A stretch of DNA of 52,566 nt from positions 1 through 52,566 of the IMG/VR virus record IMGVR_UViG_3300048588_000115. One strand, written 5' to 3'. This DNA is from a virus. Below the pieces are notes generated by a model. The model ran no database searches and was not told where the DNA came from. It saw nothing but the letters and a program-made list of their open reading frames with translations. Positions 30,392-52,566 of the stretch are shown here, piece by piece; position 1 is the first letter of the stretch; each line of letters opens with the position of its first letter. Both the position numbers and the translations under genes were made by a program.

Positions 30392-31090
30392 TTAACCTCT
30401 CATTTTTGTATATGGCTGAATGAATAATGATCCTTCTTCATCACCATATGATGATGCTAAAGCCCAGTATTCTTTAGCTTCTTGCTTTAAGTCTTGACGA
30501 TCTTGGATTGGCATTCCAACTTCTGGGGCAAGTGCGACAGCCGTTTTATAAACAATTGCGCTAGTCCAATACGATGGGAAATCAAGTGTGTCAGTAGTTG
30601 TAGTTGTAAATCCATCAAATTTTTTCTGATAGACAACAACTATACTTTTAGTAGCCACTGTACCACTATCACTTAACATCGGCCAAATTCGTAATGTACC
30701 ACCAGTTATTGTAGGTTCAAACACCCAGTTCACAGGAATACCACTTGTATTATTTGGTAGACGATAATAGTCATATAATGACTTAACTTCTAGTTCATAC
30801 TGCACACCGCTAAGTGTGTCACGCAAAAAGACACCAGAAACTTTAACGGCGTTTGCTAACGTATAATTTTGTGATGTCGTTGACGGAGTTACCGTGGTCG
30901 TTGTTCTTTTCCATAATGGCATACCATCAGTTACTGCTAGCGCAATAACGCTGTTTAATGCAGTCGCTCCATCGGTATACTGGTCGGTGGATAATGTATT
31001 TCCATCACCTGGCAAACCTAGTTTGCGATAGGCTGTTTCAATCAACTCATTACGAGTTAGTTCCCAAGAAGTATTAGCAGATGTAGTCAT
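30392..31090 (-). CDS. head-tail adaptor / tail tubular protein A-like
   Basis: 232 aa. The N-terminus ELTRNELIETAYRKLGL...LNSVIALAVTDGMPLW resembles podovirus adaptor/tubular-A proteins. The call rests on recollection and synteny. Confidence 0.4.
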   Translation of the reverse strand: MTTSANTSWELTRNELIETAYRKLGLPGDGNTLSTDQYTDGATALNSVIALAVTDGMPLWKRTTTTVTPSTTSQNYTLANAVKVSGVFLRDTLSGVQYELEVKSLYDYYRLPNNTSGIPVNWVFEPTITGGTLRIWPMLSDSGTVATKSIVVVYQKKFDGFTTTTTDTLDFPSYWTSAIVYKTAVALAPEVGMPIQDRQDLKQEAKEYWALASSYGDEEGSLFIQPYTKMRG

Positions 31091-33110: not shown

Positions 33111-33342
33111 TTAGCTGTGTAGTCCAATTAATTTCCATCTTATCAAGGCGTGTCCATAGTTCGTCTTTGAATTCACGGAAGTCTTCCTTTTTAAAGTAAG
33201 TATCTTTTACTTTATCCAGTTCGGTTTTATGTTCTTTAACTTGCTCTTTAAGGTCGCTATATGTTTGCTTCATAAACCATATTACTCCACCAAGTAAAAG
33301 ATTAATTACTACACCACCGATTGTCACTAATGAGGCATCCAT
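33094..33342 (-). CDS. membrane-anchored coiled-coil protein (holin- or spanin-like?)
   Basis: N-terminal TM segment VTIGGVVINLLLGGVIWF, then a charged helical region. Confidence 0.45.
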   Translation of the reverse strand: MDASLVTIGGVVINLLLGGVIWFMKQTYSDLKEQVKEHKTELDKVKDTYFKKEDFREFKDELWTRLDKMEINWTTQLNELRK

Positions 33343-34538
33343 TATATACTAATTCCAATTTGTAGACTAATTGTGTTACCATTATAATTTATTGTAGCAG
33401 GTTCTCCACTCCAACGCAATGTGGCATTACGCCCACTTAATGTGTATATTCCACGTTCCGCTGTTAATGCATAACTACCCGGAACACTATGAACAAATGT
33501 TACATCTTGCCCCGTTAGTGTGTATGTGCCGGTAAGAGCAATACGACCTAAGCTATAATATGCTTGTTGTCCACTAATACTATATGAACCACTATCGGCT
33601 GTGAGTGTGGAAACACCAGATGTGGTCGTGAACTGCGCCGACGTAACGATGTTGGAATCGTTCGCTGCCGCGTCCGTGTGGATCAGGTGCGCGTAGTAGC
33701 CGGTGCTCGCTGTCAGGCCGGTGGCGTTGAGCGTCTTGGCGCCCGTGCTGCTGACGGCCACAGAATCAGCCCACACGGCGCCCGTGCCGGCCTTCAGGTC
33801 CGTCGCGCTCGGCGGCGTGGCCGAGGTGCTGACGAAGGCGTACAGCGTGCCGTTGCCTTCGTCCGTCGTCGCTCCGACCGTCGCCGTCGTGCTGCCGGTG
33901 GCTGTGCCGGTGGGGCTGCTCAGGACGGGGGCGGTGGTGTCGCCGCCGCCAAGCGTCTCGGCTAGGAAATTGTCGTAGTGATATCCAGTGGTGTTGGTCG
34001 ACGCGGCGTTGTCCCGCAAGCCAGCCTTGCCAGCGGCGGTGATGGCTGAATCGGTGGCGCTGATCGCGGCCGACCCCTCGCCGAGCTTGTATAGCTCGAT
34101 GGCGCTGCCGTTGACTCGCAATTCCACAGCGTAACTGGTGCTCGTCGAGACGGTCTGTGCAACGTTCGAGCCCAATTGGGTATAGGTGCCCGCGACTCGC
34201 TTGTAGAGCTGCCAGTTAGCGCTGCTTCCAGACGAGAACGCAAGCCTGGCTTCGTAGTAAGTCAGCGCGCTTGTGTCCATGCGGGCGCACACCCCGGGGG
34301 CGTTTCCGCTGACGCCAGCGCCTGCCACGTAGATGTCTGCCTTGACAGAGTAGTCAGCGCTCGGTGGCGTCTCTGCCCGGTAGATCACGCAGTTGGTGCC
34401 GTTGCCGCGTGCGCGCTCGTCATTGGTGATGCGGAACCCGTTGCCGGCGCCCGGATGATTTACCCAGTTCGCGTCATGGTCCGGCAGGGTGTCTCCATCG
34501 GAACTTCCAGCGAATGCATCGGCGGCAATGACTGTCAT
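33342..34538 (-). CDS. chimeric structural / receptor-binding-like protein (GC-rich 5' part, AT-rich 3' part)
   Basis: 398-codon ORF. It has a T/S/A-rich Ig/Fn3-like middle and C-terminal repeats SGSYSISGQ / TGTYTLTGQ / GIYTLSGR. The composition step is near 33.62-33.66 kb. Confidence 0.5.
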   Translation of the reverse strand: MTVIAADAFAGSSDGDTLPDHDANWVNHPGAGNGFRITNDERARGNGTNCVIYRAETPPSADYSVKADIYVAGAGVSGNAPGVCARMDTSALTYYEARLAFSSGSSANWQLYKRVAGTYTQLGSNVAQTVSTSTSYAVELRVNGSAIELYKLGEGSAAISATDSAITAAGKAGLRDNAASTNTTGYHYDNFLAETLGGGDTTAPVLSSPTGTATGSTTATVGATTDEGNGTLYAFVSTSATPPSATDLKAGTGAVWADSVAVSSTGAKTLNATGLTASTGYYAHLIHTDAAANDSNIVTSAQFTTTSGVSTLTADSGSYSISGQQAYYSLGRIALTGTYTLTGQDVTFVHSVPGSYALTAERGIYTLSGRNATLRWSGEPATINYNGNTISLQIGISI

Positions 34539-35785
34539 TTTGTTCCCCGGATCGCTGTGGAGTACGACTCATACGACGAGTACACGCCAGCCCACCACAG
34601 GGCGCGCGTGCCACCGCTTACGCCACCATCAACGCCAATGGGCCGACAGTTGCGCATGCTTGACGCGCCGCCGCTGGTGACGTCGCGCAGTTTCGACCAC
34701 GACGATCCGCCGTCAGCCGTTGACCATTCGCTGAGTTCCCACGCACCGCCGGCCTGTTGGATGCTGGCGAACGCTTTGGCCGGATCGCCTCGATCCAGAG
34801 CCCCGCCGCCGGAGTAATAGGACTCCGATGAGTACAACCTCCCACCCATCGCGCACACTTCCGACGTTGACCACGAGCCGCTGACACACTTTGCGTAGCG
34901 CAGACGGTGGTCTGTCGTGGCGTTTGGAAATGTCGAATACAGCGCGTGGATCACGCCGTCCTTCACGAGCAGATCCCATACCCACGAGCGGTTCGCGCCT
35001 CCGGTGTGCACGAGCGTCGCATCTGCCGGCGTGATTGGACCGCTTCCAATGAGCGTGCCGTCGCTCTTGTAGAACAGCTCTGCGCCCGAGCCGTCAAGTT
35101 GCATGTAGACGTGGTAGACCGATGAATTCCCCTGGTTGGGATGCATATCGGTGAAGAACAGGTCGATCCTGTTCACGCCGTTGCCAACGCTCTTGACGTA
35201 AGGCCGCGTGCTGGCGTTGTCCAGCCAGGTGCGCTCCGCGTCCCACGTCCCGGCCGTCACGTCATACGCCCGAACGTTGATCGGGTTCGTCCCAACGCCT
35301 CCCGCGCCACTGCGGTAATGCAGGTACACCTTGTCGGTCTGGCTCAAGTAATATGGATTGCTGTACGTCGCAGGCGTCGTCACCGTCAGCGCCGCCGTAG
35401 AGCCCCACGCGCTGATGTCTTCTGCGTTCGTGCTGATGCGGTAGCGAGTGCCGCCCGTGTCGTTGTGCAGCGAGTAGGCTGAGAAAATGCGCCCGTCAGG
35501 CAAGAAGCAGAATCCTCCGTTGTTGTGGTCGTTCTGCTGCGTCAGTGCGTGAATTGTGGCTTCTGCTGTATCCCCGCTGGACTCGACACGCCTTGCCATG
35601 CACACGTTGCCATTGGCCTTGACGTACTGCGCGTATGTTGCGCCGTTGCGGTAGATCGCGCGCCGGTCTGAGAACCACGTCCAGATGCCGTCTGGCGCCA
35701 CCTCGTATTGAGCGGGTGCAGGCGCGTCCCTCCCCGCCCACAGGTCATCAGAATTCCTTACAAATAATGTATAATTATTCGCCAT
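34535..35785 (-). CDS. BNR/Asp-box beta-propeller-like protein (sialidase/lyase-like, depolymerase candidate)
   Basis: Asp-box TADGGSSW and repeated W/Y-rich blades. GC-rich body after an AT-rich first ~13 codons (MANNYTLFVRNSD). ATGA coupling downstream. Confidence 0.45.
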   Translation of the reverse strand: MANNYTLFVRNSDDLWAGRDAPAPAQYEVAPDGIWTWFSDRRAIYRNGATYAQYVKANGNVCMARRVESSGDTAEATIHALTQQNDHNNGGFCFLPDGRIFSAYSLHNDTGGTRYRISTNAEDISAWGSTAALTVTTPATYSNPYYLSQTDKVYLHYRSGAGGVGTNPINVRAYDVTAGTWDAERTWLDNASTRPYVKSVGNGVNRIDLFFTDMHPNQGNSSVYHVYMQLDGSGAELFYKSDGTLIGSGPITPADATLVHTGGANRSWVWDLLVKDGVIHALYSTFPNATTDHRLRYAKCVSGSWSTSEVCAMGGRLYSSESYYSGGGALDRGDPAKAFASIQQAGGAWELSEWSTADGGSSWSKLRDVTSGGASSMRNCRPIGVDGGVSGGTRALWWAGVYSSYESYSTAIRGTK

Positions 35786-39742: not shown

Positions 39743-40087
39743 TTATTCCTTATCTAAGACTGCTACAAAGTCTTCGTCATTTAACACAACGCACTCTTCT
39801 TTAGTATAGGGGTTTGTAACTAATTTACCAGAACCCTTAACATATGTGACAATATTACCAACTTCAATTGGAATATCAATGTTAAAGTCACGGAATGCGG
39901 TACTACCAATTGCAAGAACTTCTCCTACATCAACACTCAATGCCGCACGATTTTTATCGGCGCCAGTCGACTCGATTGGGGCTAATTCTAGGCCCATAGC
40001 TTTTGCTCGGCGTCGGCCATCATCCCAATCATCCACACTTAGTGGTTTTACAGCTACACGATGTAGTAAAACTTTAATAGTTTTCAT
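39743..40087 (-). CDS. GroES-like co-chaperonin
   Basis: MKTIKVLLHRVAVKPL parallels GroES MKIRPLHDRVIVK. Later GEVLAIGS and EVGNIVTY, with a C-terminus DEDFVAVLD. The ORF track starts at TTG 40111. Confidence 0.5.
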   Translation of the reverse strand: MKTIKVLLHRVAVKPLSVDDWDDGRRRAKAMGLELAPIESTGADKNRAALSVDVGEVLAIGSTAFRDFNIDIPIEVGNIVTYVKGSGKLVTNPYTKEECVVLNDEDFVAVLDKE

Positions 40088-40243
40088 CTTGTTCTGAAGA
40101 CTCCTCTTCAATTAATTCCATCGATAAGAAATCGTTTACAGCGGCAATATAACCGCAACGAAAACGATCCTCGGCGGGGTTTTGTCCCGCATAAAGCATA
40201 AGGTACGTTGTCAGTTCCTCTGCTCTATTCTTCCACCCTGAAA

Positions 40244-42328
40244 TTACTTCCCTGGTGCACGCCGACTCTTTCCAGTCGACCCATTGCTCTTTGGTTGCGA
40301 TTGTGCTTTCTCCTTGCTTTGTTGCATCGCCTGCCGATGCTGCATATCACGTTGTGTCACACCTTGAATTGCTTTTGCTTTTGCATCCGCCGCAAAGATT
40401 TCACTCATTTGGATTTTACTTGCTGCTTCAAGTTGTGCACTCTGTGCTTTATTCTGCATTTCTTGGGCATGGGACTGTTGTTCCATTACCATTTTTTGTT
40501 CTGCACTACGACCCTCTAATTCCATTTTTTGCTGTGTGGACTGAGCATCAAGCGCAGCTTTTTGTTGGTCAGTTTGTGCTTTTGCCTGAATTGCTTGTAG
40601 CTTTGGATCAGGCGGTGGCTGAAATTGACCAGTCTGTTGTACTTCATCACTGAATAGCTCTTGCCAATTAGGTTGTTCTTGCGCCTCAAGAACACGTGAT
40701 ACAACCTTAACAGGATTAAGCATACCAGTTTGTAGCAGCTCCATCAGCCCCTGTGCTTTCATTAAGCGCTCAGACTGAGAAATTGCATTAGGATCAGCCC
40801 CTGGGCAAATATCATATAATGTATCATCAAAGTCTGCTGTAGTGACTTCACCATCAATTACTGTTTGGTACTCTGAGTAATCTACATATATACGGTTTAA
40901 CTCATAAAGCTTTTTAAATTCTTCTGTAAGAGCACGATAAATACGCTTATAAACCGCTGTAAATACTTTCATGCCCTGCTCAACGGTAGCCATTGTCGTG
41001 GTAGCTGGCGTATTTTGTCCAGGCATTTTACCAGTAAAGATTTCAGCAACTGAGGCTAATTCTTTTCCAGAACCAACTAAAACTTCCATAAGCTTTAGTA
41101 ACACGGCTGATGGCTCTTTAGTAGGTAATGGGATAATTTGCTTTTTAAGATCATCACCAATAGCTCCGGTTAGTGCTTTCCACTCACCAGGTTTAAAAGT
41201 ATTATCACCCATCTTCATTTTCAAGCCCTTACCTAAGAAGCCTGATTGTAAATTATATAAGTGACCTGAATCTAAAAGCTGATTAATTAGTGTGTTAACA
41301 GACTCATTTAATGGGCCAAGTAAAACACCAAATCCGATATCATAAAAAGAACCATCTGGATTTGGAATAAAACCATATTTCGTATAGTACTGAATTGGTT
41401 CAATTTCTTGAATTTTGCCCTTATCAGTTACATATACACCATCTTCGTCAAATCGTGCCACGACACGTAGAATCTTTTTGCTATAACGTTCAAATGTGAC
41501 AATATAAGGTTCTGGATAACCATCACCATCTTTGTCAAAGTAGCAGTGCTGCTCAACAATAAAATATGGGAGTGTCTCATCCTGTCGTATAATTGCAGGC
41601 TCGCTACGCTCAATATGAGCTTGTGGTTCCCCTAGATTAACATCATCAAAGATTTCAGCCGCGATACGAGAGGCCATAACACGTTGTGGCATCATAATAA
41701 TCTCAGATACACGATCAGCGTCTTCAAGAGATTTCGACCAATAATTCACTACAACATTTTTGGCTGGAATTAATTCAGACACGAATGTTTGTCTTACTGA
41801 GTTCCAGTAAGTTTTCTTAAAGGCCATACCAACAATCGGCAGCATAATAAGAAGCTTATCCATGTCCTCTTCCCATCCAGTCATTTTACGAAGGACTTGA
41901 TAGGACATATAGGTACTTACACGGTCGGCCTTATTCTTTTTCTCACCAGTAGAATCTTGACCAATTACAACAGCTTTTACAATGCGACCATCAGATGGCA
42001 CTAATGCAGGATAAGAACGAGCATTAAACTGCATTGCAGCAGTTGATAGTAATGGATATTTAACGTTTGCTGCACCGGGCCACGGATATGTTTTGTTTTC
42101 AACAACCTGAAGTGCAAGTTTAGTCCAGTCGTCTGCCGCTTTTTCCCAATCTTTGCGTGATAACAAATCATGCTCAAAGCCACTAGCGACTTGCTCTGCT
42201 AATTGTGCCAGTTGATCTTTACTAAACTTGTTAGTTAGGTTAGTAAATTCAACCAACTCACGAATAGACTCAGTATCCGGTTGCGACTGATCGGCCATCG
42301 TTTCCGAGGTTTGCTCTGTTAAGTTCAT
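40244..42328 (-). CDS. portal protein (start uncertain; the ORF track gives 42373)
   Basis: About 700 aa, directly downstream of TerL, with a Q/K-rich C-terminal tail. The call rests on synteny and size. Confidence 0.6.
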   Translation of the reverse strand: MNLTEQTSETMADQSQPDTESIRELVEFTNLTNKFSKDQLAQLAEQVASGFEHDLLSRKDWEKAADDWTKLALQVVENKTYPWPGAANVKYPLLSTAAMQFNARSYPALVPSDGRIVKAVVIGQDSTGEKKNKADRVSTYMSYQVLRKMTGWEEDMDKLLIMLPIVGMAFKKTYWNSVRQTFVSELIPAKNVVVNYWSKSLEDADRVSEIIMMPQRVMASRIAAEIFDDVNLGEPQAHIERSEPAIIRQDETLPYFIVEQHCYFDKDGDGYPEPYIVTFERYSKKILRVVARFDEDGVYVTDKGKIQEIEPIQYYTKYGFIPNPDGSFYDIGFGVLLGPLNESVNTLINQLLDSGHLYNLQSGFLGKGLKMKMGDNTFKPGEWKALTGAIGDDLKKQIIPLPTKEPSAVLLKLMEVLVGSGKELASVAEIFTGKMPGQNTPATTTMATVEQGMKVFTAVYKRIYRALTEEFKKLYELNRIYVDYSEYQTVIDGEVTTADFDDTLYDICPGADPNAISQSERLMKAQGLMELLQTGMLNPVKVVSRVLEAQEQPNWQELFSDEVQQTGQFQPPPDPKLQAIQAKAQTDQQKAALDAQSTQQKMELEGRSAEQKMVMEQQSHAQEMQNKAQSAQLEAASKIQMSEIFAADAKAKAIQGVTQRDMQHRQAMQQSKEKAQSQPKSNGSTGKSRRAPGK

Positions 42329-43769
42329 CTTGGTAGATTTCTTCCTCTTCTTCAGCCTTTGTAGGCGCTTCAATTAATGAGTCCAGCATTAAGCCTAAAT
42401 AAGCAAATGCATCAACTTGGTCATCCTTAGTTCCACGAGGAAACTTACAAAGTTCATCCTCAAATATCGGATACCAGTCAGAACTTTTGTCAAACTTTAC
42501 AGCATGTGCTCTTACACGAGCTTGTATAGACTTTGCACGTGCAATTTTATCTTTTCCACCATGCTTTAATGGCATTAAATTCAGATAAGTGCCAGTTCGC
42601 ATCATTTCTTCACGCAAGAATGGGCCAATTGCCTTTGAAACCTGCATTTCTTCGATGCCAACTAATTCTGGTGAGTAAATTCGCTGCAAACTAAGTAGTG
42701 TGTCAACAATTTCTCGACCATCTAAGCGATCACGAATCACATTTTTGGTGTGAATAATCTTATTTTCGTCAACACCCGCAATTAAGAACACAGAATAATC
42801 AGCAGTTTCTTTTTCTGAGATAGCTAAGTCAGCAGTAATATAGTAATTTAGCTTAATGCGCTTATCTTCAGTAGTTTCTGAAATAAAATCACCACGCTTA
42901 AAGTAGGCAACTGACTCATCAATCGGGCGATTGCGATATTCCTGTGAATAAACGTCAGCTAAACCACGATCAATATAGTCTTGTCGTTCTGCAATAAACC
43001 ACTCTTTCGTATATCGTGTCGGCCATAGGATGCTGGTAAAGTCATCATTATGTGCATCATACTTGAATGCTTGCCAACTAGCTCGTTTATTACGGCTATA
43101 TATCTTTAAATCAGTTACAACAGTTTGTTTATCCCACTCTGATGGCATTAAATTGTTAAGTAGACTGTCTTCATGCAGAATTGTACCAACAATCCGAATT
43201 ACACCACTTTGTGATAATGACGGTACCAGAGCACCATAAAACCACCGCTTAAACTTTGAACGTCGTTCTGAGTTTAGAACAATTTCATCATTTTCTAAAT
43301 CGTCACCAACAATAAGATCAGGTCTCTTGTTATTCCATTTTAAGCCACGAAGCTTTTGTTCAGAGCCTTTAGCAGTTAAACGAAATTGATAACCATCTTC
43401 ACATGTGACGATTACGTCATCTTCTCTATCTTTTGCAAACTCTTTAATTTTAAAGAGTGTATTAATCCGTTCGTTATCCGCTAGTTCTTTGATGATATCA
43501 CCAAGAAACTGTGTTGCCTGTGTAATAGTATCTGAAACAATCAGAACATATTGACGATTACGAAACAGAACAGCAGCGAGTACGTATGCTAGTGTTACCG
43601 CCGTACTTTTAGCGTGACGACGCGGTGCAGCAATAGCTACTTTAGAGTGCTTAGAGCTACAAAGATCCCACCACTCATAGTGGCAATCAGGGGATTCGAC
43701 AGCTTCGTCATAATTCTTTTGTAATAAGCTACTACTAAATCCCGCAATAATATCAGCGGTTAATTCCAT
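42270..43769 (-). CDS. terL: terminase large subunit
   Basis: Walker A-like AAPRRHAKST, Walker B LIVGDDLEND, and a C-terminal nuclease-like region. Confidence 0.8.
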   Translation of the reverse strand: MELTADIIAGFSSSLLQKNYDEAVESPDCHYEWWDLCSSKHSKVAIAAPRRHAKSTAVTLAYVLAAVLFRNRQYVLIVSDTITQATQFLGDIIKELADNERINTLFKIKEFAKDREDDVIVTCEDGYQFRLTAKGSEQKLRGLKWNNKRPDLIVGDDLENDEIVLNSERRSKFKRWFYGALVPSLSQSGVIRIVGTILHEDSLLNNLMPSEWDKQTVVTDLKIYSRNKRASWQAFKYDAHNDDFTSILWPTRYTKEWFIAERQDYIDRGLADVYSQEYRNRPIDESVAYFKRGDFISETTEDKRIKLNYYITADLAISEKETADYSVFLIAGVDENKIIHTKNVIRDRLDGREIVDTLLSLQRIYSPELVGIEEMQVSKAIGPFLREEMMRTGTYLNLMPLKHGGKDKIARAKSIQARVRAHAVKFDKSSDWYPIFEDELCKFPRGTKDDQVDAFAYLGLMLDSLIEAPTKAEEEEEIYQDELNRANLGNDGRSVATGY

Positions 43770-45343
43770 TATTCAGTTAAATAAGTTGCTTTACCGTATG
43801 CACCAATGTGATTCTTCGACTGGAATCCACGGATATCACGGCGATATCCGAGGTCGGCACCATCAGTCAACAGCGGAGAGCCTGCGAGCGGCACGCCGGC
43901 TGCGTTGACGAGCGGGTCGTCTGTTGAGCTGCTTCCATGCAGCGTGTGGCCGCTGGCCGCCGCCATGTCGTAGAAGCGGTTGTTGCTCTCGCCTGTCCAC
44001 GTCACGCCGCTGGACACGGCTGCTCCTGGCCCGGTGAACAGGTTGGCCTCAACGATGTTGTCTGTGGCTGCGTCAGCCTGTAGGCGCACTCCTGCCACGG
44101 TGCAGCCCGAGAAGGTGTTGCGCACGGCATGCAAGCTCTGGTTCGGCGACCCTCCGGTGTCGTTATGAGACTGCGCTCCGATGTAGATGCCAACGGCTAC
44201 GTCGTGACCATAATTGGCTTCCACCACGCAGTCTGTGCTGTCAAGCACCATCGCAGCACAGCCACTGTTTGTGGCGCCTGTTTTTCCGGGGATGTTCCTG
44301 AACTTGTTGGCCTCGACAATTGTTCTTTGGTTTCCGTGGTCAAGCAGTACGCCGTTGCCGTCGATGGTTTCGGTGTATATGCCGTCCATTTCGTTGTGGT
44401 GGACCCAATACTCGCCAAAGAATAAGTTGAAACCGCCATACTGCCCATAGACATCGCGCAAGATGTTGTGAGCAATCTCATTCCGGCCGAATCCTGGCGT
44501 CGTGCTTGGCGCAAACCCGCGCACCACATTGCCACCAAGCAGCGAACTGCCGACAGCGAACCCGCAGTTCCGCTCGATGTTGTGCCTGATCTTCAGGCCC
44601 GTGTTCAGGCCGTAGGTATTGAAGGCGCTGTTGACCTCGATAGGGATGCCGGCGCACCCCTCGAACACGTTGTGTTCGATGACGAGGTCGGCAATCGTGC
44701 GCGCAGTGACGCCAGTGTCTGACCGAAGATGGATGATTGAACGCGGAGATTCGCACTGATGAAACCTGTTGCCCGTGATCGTTGCGCGCGTTAGCGTGAC
44801 TGTTGCACTTGCGGCCGTCACAAACTGGCTGATGAACCCCTGCGAGCCGCACTCCCCGTAGAAGTCACAGCCATCAATGACCAGATCTGTAAGCGTGTTT
44901 CCGTTTGCAACCGGCAGGGCGACAACTTGTGTGCTTCCATCTCCAGTAATGGAACAGCGTATCACCCGCGTGTAGTGTGCGCCGTTACCGATGTTCAGCG
45001 CCCGCCCGCCGTTTCCGATCAGAGCCATGCCGATAATGTCGGTGTACTGCCTGCTGCCGTTGTTCAGGTAGTAGCCGCCTGATGGAGTTGACGTAATCGT
45101 TCCCGGATCTGGGTCGAAGCTTCCATCAATGACGCACCGGGTGGCGCCGCTGTTACCTCCATGTGCCCCAATGGCGGCATTCGCTGAAAGCGTATGTGTT
45201 CCGCAGACCTTGAGGGTGTCGCCACCCACGACGCCAGCGCCGCCCCAGACGATCTCTGTCCATCCGCCCCACGCCGTCGCGTAGCTAGTGCCGTCGCGCG
45301 TCCCGGCATGTGATGTATCAGGTCTGACGTACCAAGTCCCCAT
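43769..45343 (-). CDS. right-handed parallel beta-helix protein (pectate-lyase-like, depolymerase candidate), GC-rich
   Basis: N-terminus WYVRPDTSHAGTRDGTSYATAW and repeated N-x-x-G / H-N-I-type beta-helix rungs (HNIERN, HNILRD, HHNEMDG, EANKFRN). Hand count of 44521-44580 gives 62% GC. TAATG coupling to terL. Confidence 0.6.
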   Translation of the reverse strand: MGTWYVRPDTSHAGTRDGTSYATAWGGWTEIVWGGAGVVGGDTLKVCGTHTLSANAAIGAHGGNSGATRCVIDGSFDPDPGTITSTPSGGYYLNNGSRQYTDIIGMALIGNGGRALNIGNGAHYTRVIRCSITGDGSTQVVALPVANGNTLTDLVIDGCDFYGECGSQGFISQFVTAASATVTLTRATITGNRFHQCESPRSIIHLRSDTGVTARTIADLVIEHNVFEGCAGIPIEVNSAFNTYGLNTGLKIRHNIERNCGFAVGSSLLGGNVVRGFAPSTTPGFGRNEIAHNILRDVYGQYGGFNLFFGEYWVHHNEMDGIYTETIDGNGVLLDHGNQRTIVEANKFRNIPGKTGATNSGCAAMVLDSTDCVVEANYGHDVAVGIYIGAQSHNDTGGSPNQSLHAVRNTFSGCTVAGVRLQADAATDNIVEANLFTGPGAAVSSGVTWTGESNNRFYDMAAASGHTLHGSSSTDDPLVNAAGVPLAGSPLLTDGADLGYRRDIRGFQSKNHIGAYGKATYLTE

Positions 45344-45344
45344 G

Positions 45345-45464
45345 TCAGGCCGCGCCGATGATTGGCGTCACGGGCCAATGGCCGGCGAACGTGTTGTAAG
45401 CGCTACCCAAGGACGTGCCGTCTCCATTGCTAGATGCCTGCGGATTGACGTACTGAAGTGCCAT
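45345..45464 (-). CDS. 39-codon GC-rich ORF resembling a beta-helix protein N-terminus (possible remnant)
   Basis: MALQYVNPQASSNGDGTSLGSAYNTF... parallels the WYVRPD...RDGTSYATAW of the next gene. TAATG coupling upstream and TGAcATG downstream. Confidence 0.4.
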   Translation of the reverse strand: MALQYVNPQASSNGDGTSLGSAYNTFAGHWPVTPIIGAA

Positions 45465-45955
45465 TATTCAACCATTACATCAATAGTAGCAGTGCCAGAA
45501 ATAACTACGTGACAACCAGTTGAATTAATACGACGGCCACCAGTACCTACACCAGCAGTAGCATGATCACCATCCCAGTAATAAGTACCAGTCGTGATAT
45601 TAGCCACTGTCATGATGGCTGTGCCAGTGGCACTAGTTGCATCATAGATCGTAACATCAGCAGTACCACCAGATTCAGAGCGAACTACGAATCCACGGAA
45701 TTCACAGGCACCACTAACAGCGGTGTCAGTTGCAGTTAACGTAACAACGGCGACAGCTTCAGATAAAGCATATACGCCACCATCACCATCAAGCAAATAA
45801 CCACTACTATTGATGGTACCAAGGACATTCCAAGATGTACCATCAGAATGGTATAAAGCCCCAGTATCTAACGCTTGGGCCAGTGCACCCTTGTTTGCAG
45901 TAGCATCAGGGAAATCAGCGAATGTGGCTTTAACGTATTTACCGGAGCGAATCAT
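45464..45955 (-). CDS. hypothetical beta-rich protein
   Basis: 163-codon ORF. Confidence 0.5.
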   Translation of the reverse strand: MIRSGKYVKATFADFPDATANKGALAQALDTGALYHSDGTSWNVLGTINSSGYLLDGDGGVYALSEAVAVVTLTATDTAVSGACEFRGFVVRSESGGTADVTIYDATSATGTAIMTVANITTGTYYWDGDHATAGVGTGGRRINSTGCHVVISGTATIDVMVE

Positions 45956-45958
45956 AAT

Positions 45959-46117
45959 TTACTTCTTTGCGTCTTCAGACTTGGCTGCTTGTTTAGCAGC
46001 TTCATCCATTGCAACACCTACAGCGGCGGCAGTGTTTGCATCTTTATTTGAAGCACCAGCAGCTTTAGCCTGCGTTCGTAAATTCAAATACATTAGGAAT
46101 GTGTTCCAAAAACTCAT
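45959..46117 (-). CDS. hypothetical small protein (52 aa)
   Basis: Hand-translated: MSFWNTFLMYLNLRTQAKAAGASNKDANTAAAVGVAMDEAAKQAAKSEDAKK. AAGGAAA RBS. Confidence 0.45.
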   Translation of the reverse strand: MSFWNTFLMYLNLRTQAKAAGASNKDANTAAAVGVAMDEAAKQAAKSEDAKK

Positions 46118-46120
46118 TAT

Positions 46121-46405
46121 TTATTTTCCTTTTCTTGACTTCTGATTTCGGAGAGAACCATCAGGATTACGACTAAAACTGCGATTGGCGCCACGATCAA
46201 CGACACGTAGATTAGATTTAGAAGTGGTTCCACCTTTTGATAAAGGTGTTTTATGGTCGACATCTTTTCCGTCTCCCTTATGTACCTTACCTTCTTTTTC
46301 CATTAATCGACGTGCTTTATTTTGTTCAACACGTTTCTTTACAACTTCTGGGCGGGAAGTGTACTTAGCAACTTCCTTCTTATAATCTCGTTCACCATTC
46401 TTCAT
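46121..46405 (-). CDS. small basic HNH-like protein
   Basis: DVDHKTPLSKGGTTSKSNLRVVDRGANRS resembles an HNH core (D-H...N...N). It lies in the terminase region. Confidence 0.5.
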   Translation of the reverse strand: MKNGERDYKKEVAKYTSRPEVVKKRVEQNKARRLMEKEGKVHKGDGKDVDHKTPLSKGGTTSKSNLRVVDRGANRSFSRNPDGSLRNQKSRKGK

Positions 46406-46443
46406 GTATGGGATTTTGTCATCTCCTTGTCACCCTTACGGCA

Positions 46444-46965
46444 TTAGATTTCCTTAGATACTACGTCAATAACTTCAGTAGATTTCTTACGTGTAAGCTT
46501 TGCAAATTCCATTGCTAAATTCTTTAAGATTTCGTTTGCTGAGACTTCATCGCCACTACGAGTAGCCTGAAGCTTTTCGATTTCAGCTGAACGTGTCAGC
46601 AAGTTATTCATTGCGGAGTTTGCATCACGTAAACCCACAGGCTTACGCATAAGCTCGCCGGTCTTGTTATTGAGAATGTATTCGCCGTTGCGAAGCCGGT
46701 CATCCATGATGTCTAAAGACGTAGCCGCAATGGTATTGATTTTGGATTGAAGCTCTGCTCTGGCTTCCTGCTTGACTTCTTCCATGACAGCAGGCCACCA
46801 CTCAGCTTTCTTCCATTGAAGGATAGTGCCGTATGGGATATTTGTCAGCTCGCTTGCGAGGCGTATATTGCCTAGGCGAACGATATGCCTTGCTACTTCA
46901 TAGCGGGCTTCTTGTGGATGTGGCTCGTTATGGCGAACCTTAAGCTGTGTGTCTTCTGTAGGCAT
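46444..46965 (-). CDS. terminase small subunit-like / HTH DNA-binding protein
   Basis: It is the first gene of the late arm. HTH-like IRLASELTNIPYGTILQWKK. AGGAG RBS. Confidence 0.45.
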   Translation of the reverse strand: MPTEDTQLKVRHNEPHPQEARYEVARHIVRLGNIRLASELTNIPYGTILQWKKAEWWPAVMEEVKQEARAELQSKINTIAATSLDIMDDRLRNGEYILNNKTGELMRKPVGLRDANSAMNNLLTRSAEIEKLQATRSGDEVSANEILKNLAMEFAKLTRKKSTEVIDVVSKEI

Positions 46966-46982
46966 TGCGACTCCTTTCCTAT

Positions 46983-47011
46983 ATTATACCACAGAAAAGG
47001 CGATTTGTCAA
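46983..47011 (-). promoter_or_regulatory. consensus sigma70 promoter for the minus (structural) arm
   Basis: The minus strand reads TTGACA-17 nt-TGgTATAAT, followed by AGGAG and ATG 46965. Confidence 0.75.
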
Positions 47012-47070
47012 TAGCAAAAAGCATATTTATTAAAAATAAATAGAAATATGTAAAAAAGTAAGAAAAAGAC

Positions 47071-47098
47071 TTGACTTTTTTTCAAAAGACGATATAAT
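47071..47098 (+). promoter_or_regulatory. near-consensus sigma70 promoter for the plus arm
   Basis: TTGACT at 47071-47076, a 16-nt spacer, and TATAAT at 47093-47098. Confidence 0.65.
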
Positions 47099-47099
47099 T

Positions 47100-47220
47100 A
47101 AGTAATATATATATATATAAGTAATAAAAGAATATAAAAGTTATTTACTAATAAGTTTTATGTTCTTTTATATATAAGTTATTTATTTAATTAATTATAT
47201 ATAAGTTGATAAAAAGATAA
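47100..47220. repeat. extremely AT-rich tract with repeated TATATAAGT words (possible DNA-unwinding element)
   Basis: tatatataagtaat, tatatataagttatt and tatatataagttgat are read directly. No ORF. Confidence 0.5.
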
Positions 47221-48391
47221 AAAGACTAGGGACGCGTAGCGTCTGCGAGCATCAGCGAGCCAAGTTACATTTAAATAACCCCTAGGAAGGCTTTAAAGGT
47301 ACCTAGAAGGCGTTAAAACAGGTGAAGGTATACCAGGGTAGCCAGAAGACATCTTAAGGGGCTAGAATAGCCTCTAATCGAATAGCCCTATTATTTCCCA
47401 CCCCATAAAAATGGTATAAGAGGTGTTTCACACCAATTCAACCAGAGAAGTTTTCCCCCCACCCCCTCTTTGTGACAGGGAAGACTACTCAGTTCCATAC
47501 ACTACTGTATGGTCTATTCATCATATGATACTACGTAGGGGAACGTTACCATGTAGGGTATGATTAGGGTTAACACCTATACCCCCTCCCACTATATGGA
47601 AATGCCCGGGAAGCCCCCTAGCTGGGCGATACGGCCGTTTTCGCTGAATCTGAGGCCGACCCCTTCAAAAATATAGTTATGCGCCTGTAGGGTATCCCTG
47701 ATTAATACCCGGTATGGTATGCCGTCACCCAGGTAAACACATACCCATACCCCGTACCGTATATACCCATACCCGTTATCACCTTACTTGACAAATGGTC
47801 TTTATTCTGGTATTCGCGCAGCGCAGGCAGGCCGGCGGCCGATACCTGACTAATACCGTCGGATACCCTTGTCAGGGTCGATCATTCGTGTTACCCTACG
47901 TGCGCGCGTGCGCAGATCCAGCCAGCAGCCTAGGAATGAGAATCATTCGCATCCACCCAGGCCGGGAGGGTTATTAACCCTACTGTTGACATGGGTATTT
48001 TTAACAGGCATAATGCAGACATGCGCTGAGTAATCGGTGCTAGCGAGCTAGGTCGGCGTGCTGACCGAGGCGGCTATCTTTAACAATCGATAATTGCAGA
48101 CCACGCGGCGAAGGCCAATGAACGCAGCCGCGCGAAACGTCTAGGGCGAATGCAAAAGCGCACAGCATGTGAATGCTCGCTTGCGGATTCCGTCTCCCGA
48201 TGGCCCGTCACTGCAACGTAGTGGACTGGCAATGCCAGACGTTCGCCGAATGGAAAGGGCGACTATAAAAATTACCACTTCGATAATAGATGGGGATATG
48301 GTGTAATGGCACACACCTAACGGATTCAACCGGCTTGAATCCCCATATCCTTGTACATTAACGCCGTTAACCTAACTGCTAGTGTGCAAGG
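47221..48391. other. ORF-free, motif-rich segment (iteron-like repeats and many hairpins), function unknown
   Basis: No credible ORF in about 1.17 kb. CTAG(G)AAGGCnTTAAA occurs twice (47282, 47304). TGTAGGGTAT occurs twice (47551, 47686). ATACCC/GGGTAT words are clustered at 47690-47870, and ATCATTCG occurs twice (47881, 47942). Confidence 0.6.
47986..48014 (+). promoter_or_regulatory. sigma70-type promoter TTGACA-17 nt-CATAAT with an adjacent palindrome
   Basis: TTGACA at 47986-47991 and CATAAT at 48009-48014. The inverted repeat GGGTTA-T-TAACCC at 47968-47980 lies just upstream of the -35. Confidence 0.5.
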
Positions 48392-49033
48392 ATGATGGAG
48401 ATACAAATGCAACATGCAATGGAAACCATCCGCACCAGCGGCTCGCTGCCCATGAAGAAGGCACCGATCCGCCTGGAATCGCGGGATGACCGGCTTCAGG
48501 GTGAACTGCTGTCGGCCGAAGTGCTCGCCGCTGCCAAGGGTCACGACAACATCTGGTTGGCCTTCGCGTGGCGTGTCATCGACATGACCCCGGAAGCGCG
48601 GGATGTGTTCGTGAACCGCATCAAGGCGGAGAAGTCGGCCATGACCAAGGGTCAGACCGAGGCTGGCGTCGACGAGAAGACGGCCAAGTCCCGCACCGCC
48701 ACGTTCGGAGTGCAGGTGTCCCGCTTGACCGGCATCGCCAAGGCGTGGAACGCCGGGGGCAGTGTCGAGGGTCTGTGTGACTACATGAATCAGGGCTTCA
48801 CCGACAAGAGCAAGCACGCCAAGCCCGAGGACATGCGGGCACATGCATCCTTCATCGGGATCTACGAGTACGCCAAGATCCTGAACGGGTCCGGCCTTGG
48901 TCGCAAGCCTGATGCACTCGTGGTCAAGCTCGCCAAGTTCATCAAGGCGAACACCAGCACCGACGCCGACGCCAATGACACGGCGCTGATTGCCAAGCTC
49001 ACCGAACTCTACAAGGAGTTCAACAAGGACTGA
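48392..49033 (+). CDS. hypothetical protein, GC-rich (alternative start 48407 after GGAG)
   Basis: 213-codon ORF with a balanced K/E/A composition. The overlapping minus-strand 306-codon ORF is H/R/G/L/V-biased, typical of antisense to a GC-rich gene. Confidence 0.6.
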   Translation: MMEIQMQHAMETIRTSGSLPMKKAPIRLESRDDRLQGELLSAEVLAAAKGHDNIWLAFAWRVIDMTPEARDVFVNRIKAEKSAMTKGQTEAGVDEKTAKSRTATFGVQVSRLTGIAKAWNAGGSVEGLCDYMNQGFTDKSKHAKPEDMRAHASFIGIYEYAKILNGSGLGRKPDALVVKLAKFIKANTSTDADANDTALIAKLTELYKEFNKD

Positions 49034-49040
49034 GCATCCT

Positions 49041-49056
49041 CCCCCGTGTTCGGGGG
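49041..49056 (+). terminator. GC hairpin after the 213-aa ORF (weak terminator candidate)
   Basis: CCCCCG-TGTT-CGGGGG, followed only by TT. Confidence 0.35.
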
Positions 49057-49129
49057 TTAGCATCATTAATGGTGTTAACCCCTGCACATGCAGGTCAACG
49101 CGGTGATAACCGCAGAAAGGTCGATCATC

Positions 49130-49300
49130 ATGGCACGCAAGCACACCCACCTTGGCGTCTACACTGTCCATGGCTTCATGACGCCGGCAATGGCAAAAGC
49201 GCAGAAGCTCCAACCCATCACGGTGCGCCAATACCGTGGTATCCAAGGTGCACGAGCCCGTGCACTTAAACTCCTGAACAACCGCACAACGGTGCGTTAA
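49130..49300 (+). CDS. hypothetical small basic protein, GC-rich
   Basis: MARKHTHLGVYTVHGF...; AAAGG lies before ATG 49130. The ORF track starts at 49088. Confidence 0.45.
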   Translation: MARKHTHLGVYTVHGFMTPAMAKAQKLQPITVRQYRGIQGARARALKLLNNRTTVR

Positions 49301-49619: not shown

Positions 49620-49704
49620 CCCCGAATGGTGTAATTGGTAGCCACATCAGCCTTAAAATCTGATGCCGTAAGGCGTGCCGGTTCGAGTCCGGCTTCGGGG
49701 ACCA
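49620..49704 (+). tRNA. tRNA-Leu (anticodon UAA), type II with a long variable arm, CCA encoded
   Basis: Hand-folded. Acceptor CCCCGAA/TTCGGGG, D arm GTG..CAC with GG, anticodon loop CTTAAAA, variable arm GCCGTAAGGCGT, and T arm GCCGG-TTCGAGT-CCGGC, then ACCA. Confidence 0.8.
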
Positions 49705-50336: not shown

Positions 50337-50412
50337 GTCACGTTAACTCAGTGGTTAGAGTAGCCGACTCATAATCGGTTGGTCGTTGGTTCGAGTCCAA
50401 CACGTGACACCA
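50337..50412 (+). tRNA. tRNA with CAU anticodon (elongator Met, or Ile2 if lysidinylated), CCA encoded
   Basis: Hand-folded. Acceptor GTCACGT/ACGTGAC, D arm ACTC-AGTGGTTA-GAGT, anticodon arm GCCGA-CTCATAA-TCGGT, and T arm GTTGG-TTCGAGT-CCAAC, then ACCA. Confidence 0.85.
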
Positions 50413-50787: not shown

Positions 50788-51387
50788 ATGGCAAAGAAAG
50801 AATTTGGCTGGCATTTCGTAGCTGATAAGCTGCGTGATGGCTCGCCTATCCCTGCTGATGGTGTACCGCTTGTGTATAGCGGTGCTATTCACATCTGCAC
50901 GTCAGGCTTGCACTTCTCAAGCAAGCCACACCAAGCGTTGCGGTATGCACCAGGCAATACGCTGTGCTACGTGCAGGTGGAAGATGTGCGAGAGCGTCAG
51001 GCAGACAAAGGTGTGTGCAGCAAACGTACAATTATTAAGCGGATTAATGCCAAGCAGTTGATGCGACGCTTCGCATGTGATCAAGCGTTGTCTGTTGCAC
51101 ATCTGCGTGAGCCCAATGCCGTTGTGGATAAGTATCTGCAAACGGCTGACCCTGCTTTGCGGGATGCGGCGCGTAGCGCGGCATGGAATGCGGCGCGGTA
51201 TGTGGCGTCGAGTGCGGCGTGGGATGCGGCGTCGAGTGCGGCGTGGGATGCGGCGTCGAGTGCGGCGTGGGATGCGGCGTCGAGTGCGGCGTGGGATGCG
51301 GCGTGGGATGCGGCGCGGTATGCGGTGTGGAATGCGGCATGGGAAGAATTCGATAGGCGTGTGTATGCTGCTTTTGGCTTGAATTGA
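50788..51387 (+). CDS. Ala/Trp 4-residue-repeat protein, paralog A
   Basis: ATG 50788 follows the AGGAG cassette. The N-domain is [61 protein letters not shown]. The C-terminus has AAWDAASS repeats. The antisense PHSTPH ORF was rejected. Confidence 0.75.
51165..51345 (+). repeat. coding tandem repeats (12-nt period; four 24-nt units encoding AAWDAASS)
   Basis: agtgcggcgtgggatgcggcgtcg is repeated four times around 51211-51300. Repeat number and order differ from paralog B. Confidence 0.85.
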
Positions 51388-51453
51388 TGCGGTATTTACG
51401 TGCTTGTGGCATTTGTGTTTTGTTCTTGATCCTCATTATTATTTGGAGTTAAT

Positions 51454-51618
51454 GTGAGTACCACATCTAGGCGCGTATGTGCAATGCGCAAAAAATCAAA
51501 ACCTAGTCGCACAAAGTCAAATCGTGCGATTATTTACATCGCTGTGCTACCACCAACTGGATGGCCTGCATTTACTGGTCAAAATTGGGCCGATCTTGGC
51601 CTGCGTAGGAGAGGGTAA
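51454..51618 (+). CDS. hypothetical small basic protein (GTG start)
   Basis: GGAG at 51445-51448 lies 5 nt before GTG 51454. TAATG coupling downstream. 54 codons. Confidence 0.35.
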   Translation: MSTTSRRVCAMRKKSKPSRTKSNRAIIYIAVLPPTGWPAFTGQNWADLGLRRRG

Positions 51619-52191: not shown

Positions 52192-52566
52192 ATGGCAAAG
52201 AAAGAGTTTGGCTGGCATTTCGTAGCTGATAAGCTGCGTGATGGCTCGCCTATCCCTGCTGATGGTGTACCGCTTGTGTATAGCGGTGCTATTCGCATCT
52301 GTCGATCTGGCTTGCATTTCTCAAGCAAGCCTCATCAAGCGTTGCAATATGCACCAGGCAATACACTATGCTACGTGCAGGTGGCAGATGTACGTGAGCG
52401 GGGGGCAGACAAAGGTGTGTGCAGCAAACGTACAATTATTAAGCGGATTAATGCCAAGCAGTTGATGCGACGCTTCGCATGTGATCAAGCGTTGTCTGTT
52501 GCACATCTGCGTGAGCCCAATGCCGTTGTGGATAAGTATCTGCAAACGGCTGACCCTGCTTTGCGG
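52192..52566 (+). CDS. Ala/Trp 4-residue-repeat protein, paralog B, 5' part (continues at nt 128 across the junction)
   Basis: ATGGCAAAGAAAGAGTTTGGCTGGCATTTC... runs open to the window end. It is roughly 90% identical by eye to 50788..51162. Confidence 0.7.
   Translation, partial: MAKKEFGWHFVADKLRDGSPIPADGVPLVYSGAIRICRSGLHFSSKPHQALQYAPGNTLCYVQVADVRERGADKGVCSKRTIIKRINAKQLMRRFACDQALSVAHLREPNAVVDKYLQTADPALR

Follow-up and report, generated by a model that had tools for sequence, protein, structure and literature searches.

A GC-rich beta-helix gene upstream of terL in an uncultured phage is probably the exchangeable half of a two-gene cassette

Phage tailspikes and virion depolymerases, for instance those with T7-like gp17-type anchors and the Friunavirus tailspikes, are well described, and the exchange of beta-helix depolymerase domains is a main route by which phages change their host range. 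So far, such exchange has been described chiefly in tailspikes with an anchor of their own. Both the horizontal exchange of beta-helix domains and the presence of phage islands with atypical GC content are well known. In the general tailspike logic, a conserved N-terminal anchor is combined with a swapped catalytic domain (PMC6966330). In SP6/K1-5-like phages, the adapter gp37 mounts tailspikes that lack an anchor (Leiman et al. 2007, as cited in PMC6966330). A different two-gene arrangement is found in the GH136 enzyme LnbX, a beta-helix glycosidase that needs the co-expressed product of the adjacent gene, LnbY, an all-alpha protein that embraces the helix (PMC7335108). Here we describe a GC-rich island in the packaging module of the virus record IMGVR_UViG_3300048588_000115 of IMG/VR, whose 52,566 nucleotides were analysed as a whole and are referred to as the window. 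The island (43830-45464, minus strand) holds most of a 524-amino-acid (aa) beta-helix gene (whole open reading frame, ORF, 43769-45343) and a 39-codon ORF (45345-45464), and lies between a 163-aa gene and the gene of TerL. We consider it rather likely that this stretch forms the enzyme half, open to exchange, of a cassette of two genes, which encode a small constant partner and a beta-helix protein that is probably sugar-degrading, and that the 39-codon ORF is the leftover start of a replaced version.

The locus shares with tailspikes the right-handed beta-helix, tailspikes being among the structural neighbours of the 524-aa protein, and the presence of a resident N-terminal module with a horizontally exchanged distal part, which was observed in the window and in two related phages (L035 and L072). 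Unlike in tailspikes, anchor and enzyme would lie on two polypeptides, the beta-helix starting at residue 3, and cassettes of this type are located in packaging/head operons and not in tail modules. No homology of the 524-aa protein to known tailspikes was detected by sequence in PHROGs or in 50,697 phage records. With respect to the SP6/K1-5 adapter, the likeness is that an enzyme of the beta-helix type without an anchor could be attached to the virion by a small protein whose gene lies upstream, which would allow its exchange, and both the adjacency of the genes and their three-tier modularity fit this comparison. In contrast, the partner has no PHROG or Pfam homology, nor homology to known adapters, occupies another genome position, and is composed of a ~110-aa beta-sandwich and a 45-aa module. 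GH136 has in common with the locus the adjacent partner gene, and it is the top match in the PDB for the 524-aa model (TM-scores 0.35-0.41, identity 12-14%); since LnbY is all-alpha and the window partner is all-beta, this comparison is an analogy only. Morons and hypervariable slots, finally, resemble the locus in their odd composition, in their absence from most relatives and in the cargo varying from one relative to another. The window gene differs from a moron in its translational coupling to an essential operon, in which it precedes TerL and has no promoter or terminator of its own by consensus scan, and in belonging to a recurrent two-gene unit; moreover, in this lineage the cargo is joined in frame to a resident module.

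The 163-aa gene that precedes the island (45464..45955, minus strand) had been taken for a backbone gene, and it turned out to be the conserved partner of the beta-helix gene, with which it forms the cassette. The viral, metagenome and genome collections yielded about 25 loci of unrelated phage types in which a partner gene is followed by a beta-helix gene within -4 to +3 nucleotides (nt). The beta-helix bodies of the paired loci are of many types (401-579 aa, with a mean identity of 26%), and a similar tail of ~35 residues ends all of them, the proteins being otherwise unrelated. Two related forms of this tail were recognised, …GSPLL..GADLGY.RDI.G.QS..HIGAYG… and …GTHLGYTRDI.RKQRPNPP.IGAYD…. 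In all loci examined the cassette is placed within the packaging/head operon, after the gene of TerL, of the portal or of the major capsid protein, and the gene orders that carry it are T7-like, P22-like, SU10-like and HK97-like. The packaging module, considered an odd location in the original prediction, is thus the rule for this cassette; the location among tail genes that is typical of tailspikes was not found, as the gene lies here between an HNH gene and TerL. Searches by tblastn with the beta-helix protein, the partner and a second beta-helix type in the 50,697 phage records gave nothing save one marginal match to an Enterococcus phage, which extended over 14% of the query, and both families were found only in uncultured phages and in one prophage-like region. 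A literature search on head-module beta-helix proteins gave nothing specific.

The relation between the parts of the cassette was evaluated in 23 of these loci. The identity of the partner C-terminal domain followed that of the tail (Spearman 0.72, Mantel p = 5e-4) and not that of the body (Spearman 0.10, p = 0.10). Partner and tail thus behave as constant flanks, co-inherited or co-evolving, with the body shuffled between them. An exchange of this kind was found in two contigs from sister samples, L010 and L011 (IMG/VR 3300048839_001136 and 3300048838_000571). These contigs are 100% identical over 6.3 kb, as far as the final partner codons, diverge at the stop codon of the partner, carry bodies that are 27% identical, and have tails that are again 87-89% identical over 111 nt. 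The swap cannot be called clean on both sides, because the right side realigns in the 111-nt tail only. The L011 contig ends after the beta-helix gene, which suggests a cassette polymorphism at the strain level that breaks assemblies. A further arrangement was seen in a 55-kb Logan contig (SRR29476933, L006:6291-8611), from a phage with the same types of capsid and stabilisation protein as the window. Here, a homologue of the HNH protein (58% identical), a partner-like protein of 157 aa and a beta-helix homologue of 536 aa are encoded in direct succession at a different genome position, between head and tail genes; HNH gene and cassette may travel together. The 157-aa protein is a possible distant relative of the partner (hhalign probability 71%, E = 3.7e-5).

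The partner has 39 other relatives, in which the N-termini are very diverse and the C-terminal domain of ~110 aa is strongly conserved. Between the window phage and a phage with 65% GC, this domain is 85% identical despite saturated synonymous sites (synonymous divergence pS 0.92, nonsynonymous divergence pN 0.087), which points to strong purifying selection. The domain was modelled with AlphaFold2 (AF2) as an all-beta sandwich, with a mean predicted local distance difference test score (pLDDT) of 92. When the model was compared with the PDB by Foldseek, only weak generic matches were obtained (jelly-roll, carbohydrate-binding module and TNF-like, best E = 0.018), and for this reason no function was taken from the partner fold. 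The protein has no match in Pfam, PHROGs, NCBIfam or PADLOC. Its first ~45 aa form a module resident in the lineage, which is present also in the L035 partner and in a chimeric gene of L072; no further copies of this module, of the C-terminal domain or of the tail were found within the window. In addition, a module of the partner type starts two small unannotated proteins beside a 1,361-aa fibre-like protein in the viral contig L012, an occurrence that may be taken as a weak hint of virion association.

The composition of the island agrees with its being foreign, as had been proposed: its GC content is 59.4%, against 43.7% for the whole window, and only 2% of the stretches of equal length reach that value. 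The 62% GC counted by hand for 44521-44580 in the original prediction was 61.7% on recount. The GC content at third codon positions (GC3) is 0.68 in the 524-aa gene and 0.70 in the 39-codon ORF, compared with 0.27-0.31 in the neighbouring genes (0.27 in the 163-aa gene and 0.28 in terL), and the cassette is absent from about 20 relatives. Within the 524-aa gene, the imported GC-rich body comprises approximately codons 1-485 (43890..45343, minus strand; GC3 0.53-0.93). In the C-terminal tail, which corresponds to about the last 35-40 codons (43769..43889, minus strand, boundary approximate; …GSPLLTDGADLGYRRDIRGFQSKNHIGAYGKATYLTE), the composition moves to that of the backbone, and GC3 falls to 0.1-0.2 over the last ~15 codons, as had been noticed before. 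The right-hand junction is marked twice, by this drift of GC3 and by the loss of DNA identity to the contig of the closest homologue, P0002 (L038). The identity is 90-98% at nt 1198-1410 of the gene and decays from nt ~1440; the body of the window allele is a mosaic of P0002-like stretches and stretches resembling a second homologue, P0003. The genes are tightly joined: TAATG overlaps were confirmed at 45464, between the 163-aa gene and the 39-codon ORF, and at 43769, where the stop codon of the 524-aa gene overlaps the start of terL. The TGA stop of the 39-codon ORF lies one base before the ATG of the 524-aa gene (TGA-c-ATG).

With regard to the 524-aa protein itself, the right-handed beta-helix proposed from the sequence is established at the level of the structural model. 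AF2 gave a mean pLDDT of 94 and a predicted TM-score (pTM) of 0.93 with an alignment of 40 sequences, and in the model one right-handed beta-helix spans residues 3 to ~460 and leads into a C-terminal cap, without the separate N-terminal domain that serves tailspikes as an anchor on the same polypeptide. Foldseek returned right-handed beta-helix proteins only, with probability 1.0 for the significant matches, TM-scores of 0.2-0.5 and identities of 9-16%. Among these neighbours were GH136 lacto-N-biosidases, PL6 lyases, GH87 enzymes, the alginate epimerases AlgE and AlgG and phage tailspikes, and the top of the list was occupied by hydrolases and lyases. At the sequence level there was no match in Pfam (0 families at E <= 0.01), PHROGs, NCBIfam or PADLOC, none in all PDB sequences by phmmer at E <= 1, and no homology was found to the characterised CAZy beta-helix families PL6, GH136, GH87, PL9 and AlgE/AlgG, for which the Foldseek comparison with the PDB gave identities of 9-14% and TM-scores of 0.2-0.4. 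Some homologues have precomputed matches to PF13229 (Beta_helix) or PF05048 (NosD), those looked up being weak or faint, and the window protein has none. In a large protein collection we found 42 other relatives, the closest being 81%, 75% and 57% identical and the others 31-41%; the first two are the metagenomic proteins P0002 (81%) and P0003 (75%), and two contigs are on record for the window protein. Read from sequence alone, the 40-sequence alignment has invariant Asn residues at about one-coil spacing (225, 255, 293, 317, 346, 377, 409 and 455), as well as invariant D328 and D335 in the motif TIDGNGxLxDH, which could belong to the active site. From the fold, a carbohydrate-active function may reasonably be deduced, and no specific family can be claimed. 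The term depolymerase-like used in the original prediction is therefore a judgement on the fold only, and it does not extend to a sequence match with characterised enzymes or to an N-terminal anchor of the tailspike kind.

An enzyme that builds or modifies glycans, such as an epimerase-like protein or an accessory of virion or host glycosylation, or else an adhesin without enzymatic activity, would be an alternative to a depolymerase. The genomic context of P0003 speaks for it. This locus (L001:4029-8859, ENA ERZ23498651 scaffold_8236) is an SU10-like head module in which the gene, beside that of the capsid, has as neighbours genes for a TPR protein, a GT8-like protein (E = 1.5e-3, below threshold), an FkbM methyltransferase (7e-14) and a 207-aa unknown protein; it could possibly be a phage-encoded glycan-modification cluster. 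The homologue P0010 follows a GT2-like gene (E = 2.6e-3), the mannuronan C5-epimerases AlgE and AlgG are among the structural neighbours, and weak NosD matches exist on some homologues. However, the glycosyltransferase matches are below the Pfam thresholds and concern a minority of contexts, and degradative enzymes appear in others: a polysaccharide lyase in L008 (2e-10; a prophage-like region of Nitrosospira) and a PhoD-like protein in L072. Together with the hydrolases and lyases heading the list of structural neighbours and with the rapid turnover of alleles, which suits enzymes that determine specificity, this makes a modifying or adhesive role unlikely in our view.

The 39-codon ORF (45345..45464, minus strand) has a canonical coupled start (TAATG), and its position can be defined by comparison with L035. 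In the alignment of both loci, a segment of 121 nt is present in the window only. It is immediately flanked by two sequences that both phages have in common, the coupled start (…TAATGGC) and, in the coding sequence of the beta-helix protein, …GACTTGGTA(C/T)GTC…. The ORF is this segment, and consequently it sits at the position where other cassettes start the beta-helix gene. Its product, which starts with MALQYVNPQASSNGDGTSLGSAYNTF…, resembles the N-termini of partner-coupled beta-helix proteins, such as those of L058 (MANIYVDPSAATNGSGTE) and of L052 and L057 (MATFYIDPSAAVNGSGTE). The best score was 53, against a maximum of 39 for the N-termini of the other 386 ORFs of the window (mean 23.5, standard deviation 4.1), with p = 7e-4 by shuffling and an empirical p < 0.003, so that the N-terminal similarity noticed in the original prediction withstood a proper alignment; it is real but modest. 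In a tblastn search of the peptide against 656 kb of loci, six of the best matches begin at residue 1 of partner-coupled beta-helix genes. Similarity at the 5' end, the orthologous start position and the truncation, all three present here, are the marks of a gene remnant.

The original prediction had gone further and regarded the ORF as a truncated second copy of the resident gene. A tandem duplication of the 5' end would account for the resemblance between the peptide and the resident N-terminus (Smith-Waterman score 43, with a shuffle p of ~0.001 for the first 60 aa or 0.01 for the whole protein) and for the similar GC3 (0.70 and 0.68). On the other hand, the similarity at the DNA level to the 5' end of the resident gene is no more than that expected by chance (p = 0.27), the family-invariant residues W4, R7 and H12 are replaced, indels are present, and the peptide scores equally well or better against other types of N-terminus (L058, L052, L011). 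Furthermore, the ORF is found exactly where all other cassettes have their true start. A duplicate is thus quite improbable. The part of the claim that stands is that of a truncated beta-helix N-terminus left by recombination; the combination of protein-level similarity with the lack of DNA similarity to the resident gene and of the invariant residues indicates the relic of a displaced, divergent allele, and its GC3 of 0.70 implies that this allele was itself an import. Two other explanations were tried and discarded: a frameshift fusion of the relic to the 524-aa gene would require both readthrough of the TGA and a +1 shift, and the N-terminal cap would then be present twice; and a donor partner 3' end within the 3' half of the relic was not supported by any convincing similarity to partner C-termini. 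No Shine-Dalgarno sequence precedes the ATG of the 524-aa gene, and such sequences are present at many genes of the window phage; the relic probably passes ribosomes on from the partner to the 524-aa gene by termination-reinitiation.

To place the cassette in its lineage, we considered 21 loci related by TerL (46-83% identical), the following statements covering those that include the upstream region. The order of genes in these relatives is TerS-like, HNH, a gap of 0-1030 bp and TerL, and the gap is occupied by a holin-like gene, an extra HNH gene, other small genes or nothing. The cassette between HNH and TerL is absent from all ~20 of these relatives. Two closer relatives have GC-rich genes in the same slot. 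In L035 (TerL 81%), a partner that is 72% identical to that of the window (GC3 0.34) is preceded by a 48-aa ORF and followed by a beta-helix allele that is 39% identical to the resident one (GC3 0.77); the stop codon of the partner overlaps the start of this allele, and there is no 39-codon ORF. In L072 (JGI 3300078335, contig Ga0643540_0000885, L072:7001-9623), the closest relative found (TerL 86%), the slot contains three GC-rich genes in succession, which encode proteins of 204 aa and 286 aa and a PhoD-like enzyme (PF09423, E = 1e-16). The 204-aa gene is chimeric: its first ~40 codons are AT-rich (GC3 0.07-0.27) and correspond to the N-terminal module of the window partner (MIRSGKYVK…NKGALAQALDTG.LY.SDG..WN), and from codon ~46 onwards GC3 is 0.8-1.0. 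The rise of GC3 starts at codon ~96 of the partner in L035, exactly at the partner stop in the window and at codon ~46 in L072. Taken with the common N-terminus, these different points indicate that the lineage keeps a resident module of ~45 codons to which GC-rich material has been joined in frame at differing positions. A conserved module with an exchanged distal part was therefore found among close relatives (window, L035 and L072, and also in L010/L011). The sequences compared show repeated independent GC-rich imports into one slot of an AT-rich phage lineage, and judging from L072, the slot accepts payloads other than beta-helix proteins on the same N-terminal module.

These results bear on the possibility of an ordinary moron, that is, a bacterial beta-helix gene picked up once by illegitimate recombination and without ties to its neighbours, in which case the 163-aa gene would be unrelated backbone and the 39-codon ORF a product of chance. 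Such an origin would agree with the strong compositional contrast, with the hypervariability of the slot between HNH and TerL, where relatives carry unrelated small genes, and with neither protein being annotated by any library. Of the properties of morons, atypical composition and absence from close relatives are present; an autonomous transcription unit is not, since a consensus scan, the only approach used for this purpose, gave no promoter-like or terminator-like site on the minus strand in 43769-46440, and the gene is translationally coupled to TerL. Against a single acquisition are also the adjacency and coupling of partner and beta-helix genes in ~25 loci of unrelated phages, the co-variation of partner and tail, the re-use of slot and N-terminal module by sister phages, and the score of the relic, which surpasses every other ORF N-terminus in the window. 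We regard the moron explanation as largely refuted by the recurrent pairing, and accordingly as very improbable. A metagenomic assembly chimera of a GC-rich contig with an AT-rich phage can scarcely be credited: the abrupt change of composition at both edges, and an L011 contig that ends 147 nt past the beta-helix gene as if the assembly graph branched at such cassettes, would suit it, but independent assemblies (L035 and L072) have GC-rich inserts with in-frame junctions in the same slot, the stop/start overlaps at both junctions of the window are functional, the change of composition along the last ~40 codons is gradual, and the window protein is present on two contigs.

Starting from what is seen in the sequences, namely the anatomy of the cassette, its absence from most relatives, the swapped alleles, the relic, the fold and the co-variation of partner and tail, the following course of events is proposed for the exchangeable cassette. 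Beta-helix bodies would be replaced by recombination between two conserved flanks, the partner and the tail. In the latest replacement, a body of ~58% GC would have arrived with its own start codon, and the first 39 codons of the previous allele would have been left behind at the coupled start. The cassette would be transcribed from the predicted promoter upstream of the TerS-like gene and probably translated by a stop/start relay, from the partner through TAATG into the relic ORF, through TGAcATG into the beta-helix gene and through TAATG into TerL. The beta-helix protein would cut, or possibly modify, a surface polysaccharide of the host, with the specificity set by the body. The partner would be a constant subunit, most likely an adaptor whose lineage-specific N-terminal module docks the enzyme to the virion, and otherwise an assembly factor. 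The adaptor is favoured by the fact that the N-terminal module follows the phage lineage, the C-terminal domain and the tail cross lineages and the body is free, as would be expected if an anchorless enzyme were docked to the virion; by analogy, a dedicated partner for folding and assembly is the alternative role for the 163-aa protein. Enzyme activity and virion attachment of the cassette proteins are what we infer from the fold and the gene pattern, and the enzyme could instead be a soluble protein set free at lysis.

Several observations weigh against this interpretation. P0003, the closest homologue with full context (75% identical), has no partner upstream, and some members of the family (L002, L003 and L008) are paired with a different upstream protein of 191 aa; these 191-aa proteins were considered as relatives of the partner and rejected (hhalign probability 1%). 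The modular pattern is the only ground for the role of the partner as adaptor or chaperone, and its co-variation with the tail could reflect the co-inheritance of the flanks and not a physical contact. The beta-helix protein matches no characterised family by sequence, and its Foldseek TM-scores are only 0.2-0.5. In L011, the 147 nt remaining past the beta-helix stop are not alignable to L010, so the right flank of that swap is judged on the 111-nt tail alone. Finally, the parent allele of the relic, sought as a full-length gene starting with MALQYVNPQASSNGDGTS…, was not found: an exhaustive phmmer search of 1.84 billion representatives returned only three repeat-derived junk proteins, degenerate DNA patterns had 0 matches in viral and metagenome collections, and a blastn comparison of the relic with all loci retrieved yielded nothing beyond chance matches of 12-16 nt.

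A more far-reaching idea is that the N-terminal module of the partner, acting as a socket, its beta-sandwich and the co-varying ~35-residue tail of the enzymes form a plug-and-play mounting system across unrelated phage lineages (T7-like, P22-like, SU10-like, HK97-like and the window phage), which would display interchangeable enzymes that degrade surface polymers, that is, beta-helix glycanases and one PhoD-like phosphoesterase. Since the genes are always in head or packaging operons, these enzymes might be mounted on the capsid or the portal vertex and not on the tail. This proposal is speculative and we would not expect it to hold in full; if it were true, the cassette would represent an undescribed class of virion-borne enzymes.

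As regards the remaining features of the phage, the contig is 52.6 kb long, has 43.7% GC and looks complete. Its end is an exact direct repeat of 127 nt of its start (1-127 / 52440-52566), pointing to a circular assembly or to terminal redundancy. Its first ~125 nt recur also internally at 51036-51160, forming a direct repeat ~1.4 kb apart in the GC-rich right end. The structural genes form a long block on the minus strand, from ~47.0 kb down to 20.8 kb, which begins in the order promoter-like site, TerS-like gene, HNH gene, 52-aa ORF, 163-aa gene, 39-codon ORF, 524-aa gene, TerL and portal. The promoter-like site, of the sigma-70 type (46983..47011, minus strand; TTGACA, 17 nt, TATAAT, with TG; 12/12 consensus match), is just upstream of the TerS-like gene, and the packaging/late operon, cassette included, is predicted to begin there; the consensus scan revealed no terminator-like sites on the minus strand between it and TerL. 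The intergenic region 46966-47350 is very AT-rich (25-28% GC) and has a second promoter-like site on the plus strand (47071-47098, 11/12 consensus match), and it probably serves as a divergent control region, from which the early and the late block would be read in opposite directions.

The TerS-like gene (46444..46965, minus strand, 173 aa) was assigned from position alone, being conserved upstream of HNH and TerL in ~20 relatives; its product has no match in Pfam or PHROGs. The HNH endonuclease-like gene (46121..46405, minus strand, 94 aa; Pfam HNH E = 6e-4, just below threshold; phrog_4590 1e-18) lies between TerS-like gene and TerL in all relatives and represents the backbone at the left edge of the variable slot. 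It is followed by an Ala/Lys-rich ORF of 52 aa (45959..46117, minus strand), which precedes the partner gene, has backbone codon use (GC3 0.32) and is 56% identical to the 48-aa ORF at the equivalent place in the sister phage L035. The right edge of the slot is TerL (42270..43769, minus strand, 499 aa; phrog_38 8e-78), 46-86% identical in relatives. The longest portal ORF (40244-42373, TTG start) overlaps TerL by ~100 nt, for which reason the true portal start is probably further downstream. The 122-aa ORF after the portal (39743-40111) has a weak Cpn10 (GroES-like) match (E = 8e-5) and is conserved in L035 and L072.

Two further proteins of the window resembling glycan enzymes had been pointed out, and both were recognised by Pfam: a 557-aa protein (31090-32763) as Pect-lyase_RHGA_epim (5e-7) and a 416-aa protein (34535-35785) as BNR_4 (3e-29). 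The latter belongs to a second GC-rich island (33342-35785, minus strand; ~62% GC, GC3 0.66-0.75) of two coupled genes, which encode this sialidase-like protein and a 398-aa protein without family match. It is located between head-completion genes and the tailspike-like 557-aa gene, and from its sequence it looks like another import into the structural block. GC-rich stretches (55-63% GC) are present also in the plus-strand early region at 48101-49300 and 50801-51600, and the former includes a 213-aa ORF (48392-49033) without Pfam or PHROG match. Genes for tRNA-Leu(TAA) and tRNA-Met were located at 49620-49704 and 50337-50412. A tRNA reading UUA in an AT-rich phage, together with imports of ~60% GC, hints that the GC content of the host is far above that of the phage.

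In comparison with the systems described at the beginning, what is new in this cassette is the split architecture, in which the partner belongs to a strongly conserved family that no library annotates, its steady placement in packaging/head operons over unrelated phage lineages, and the co-variation of partner and tail. A series of in-frame imports onto a resident module of 45 codons is documented as well, and the relic ORF probably preserves translational coupling. An imperfect swap can thus leave behind a short relic ORF that probably still links the translation of the new gene to that of its neighbours. Should the partner be an adaptor, the specificity of phage enzymes could be engineered in practice by way of the conserved flanks; if it is not, the pairing would still define two protein families worth characterising.

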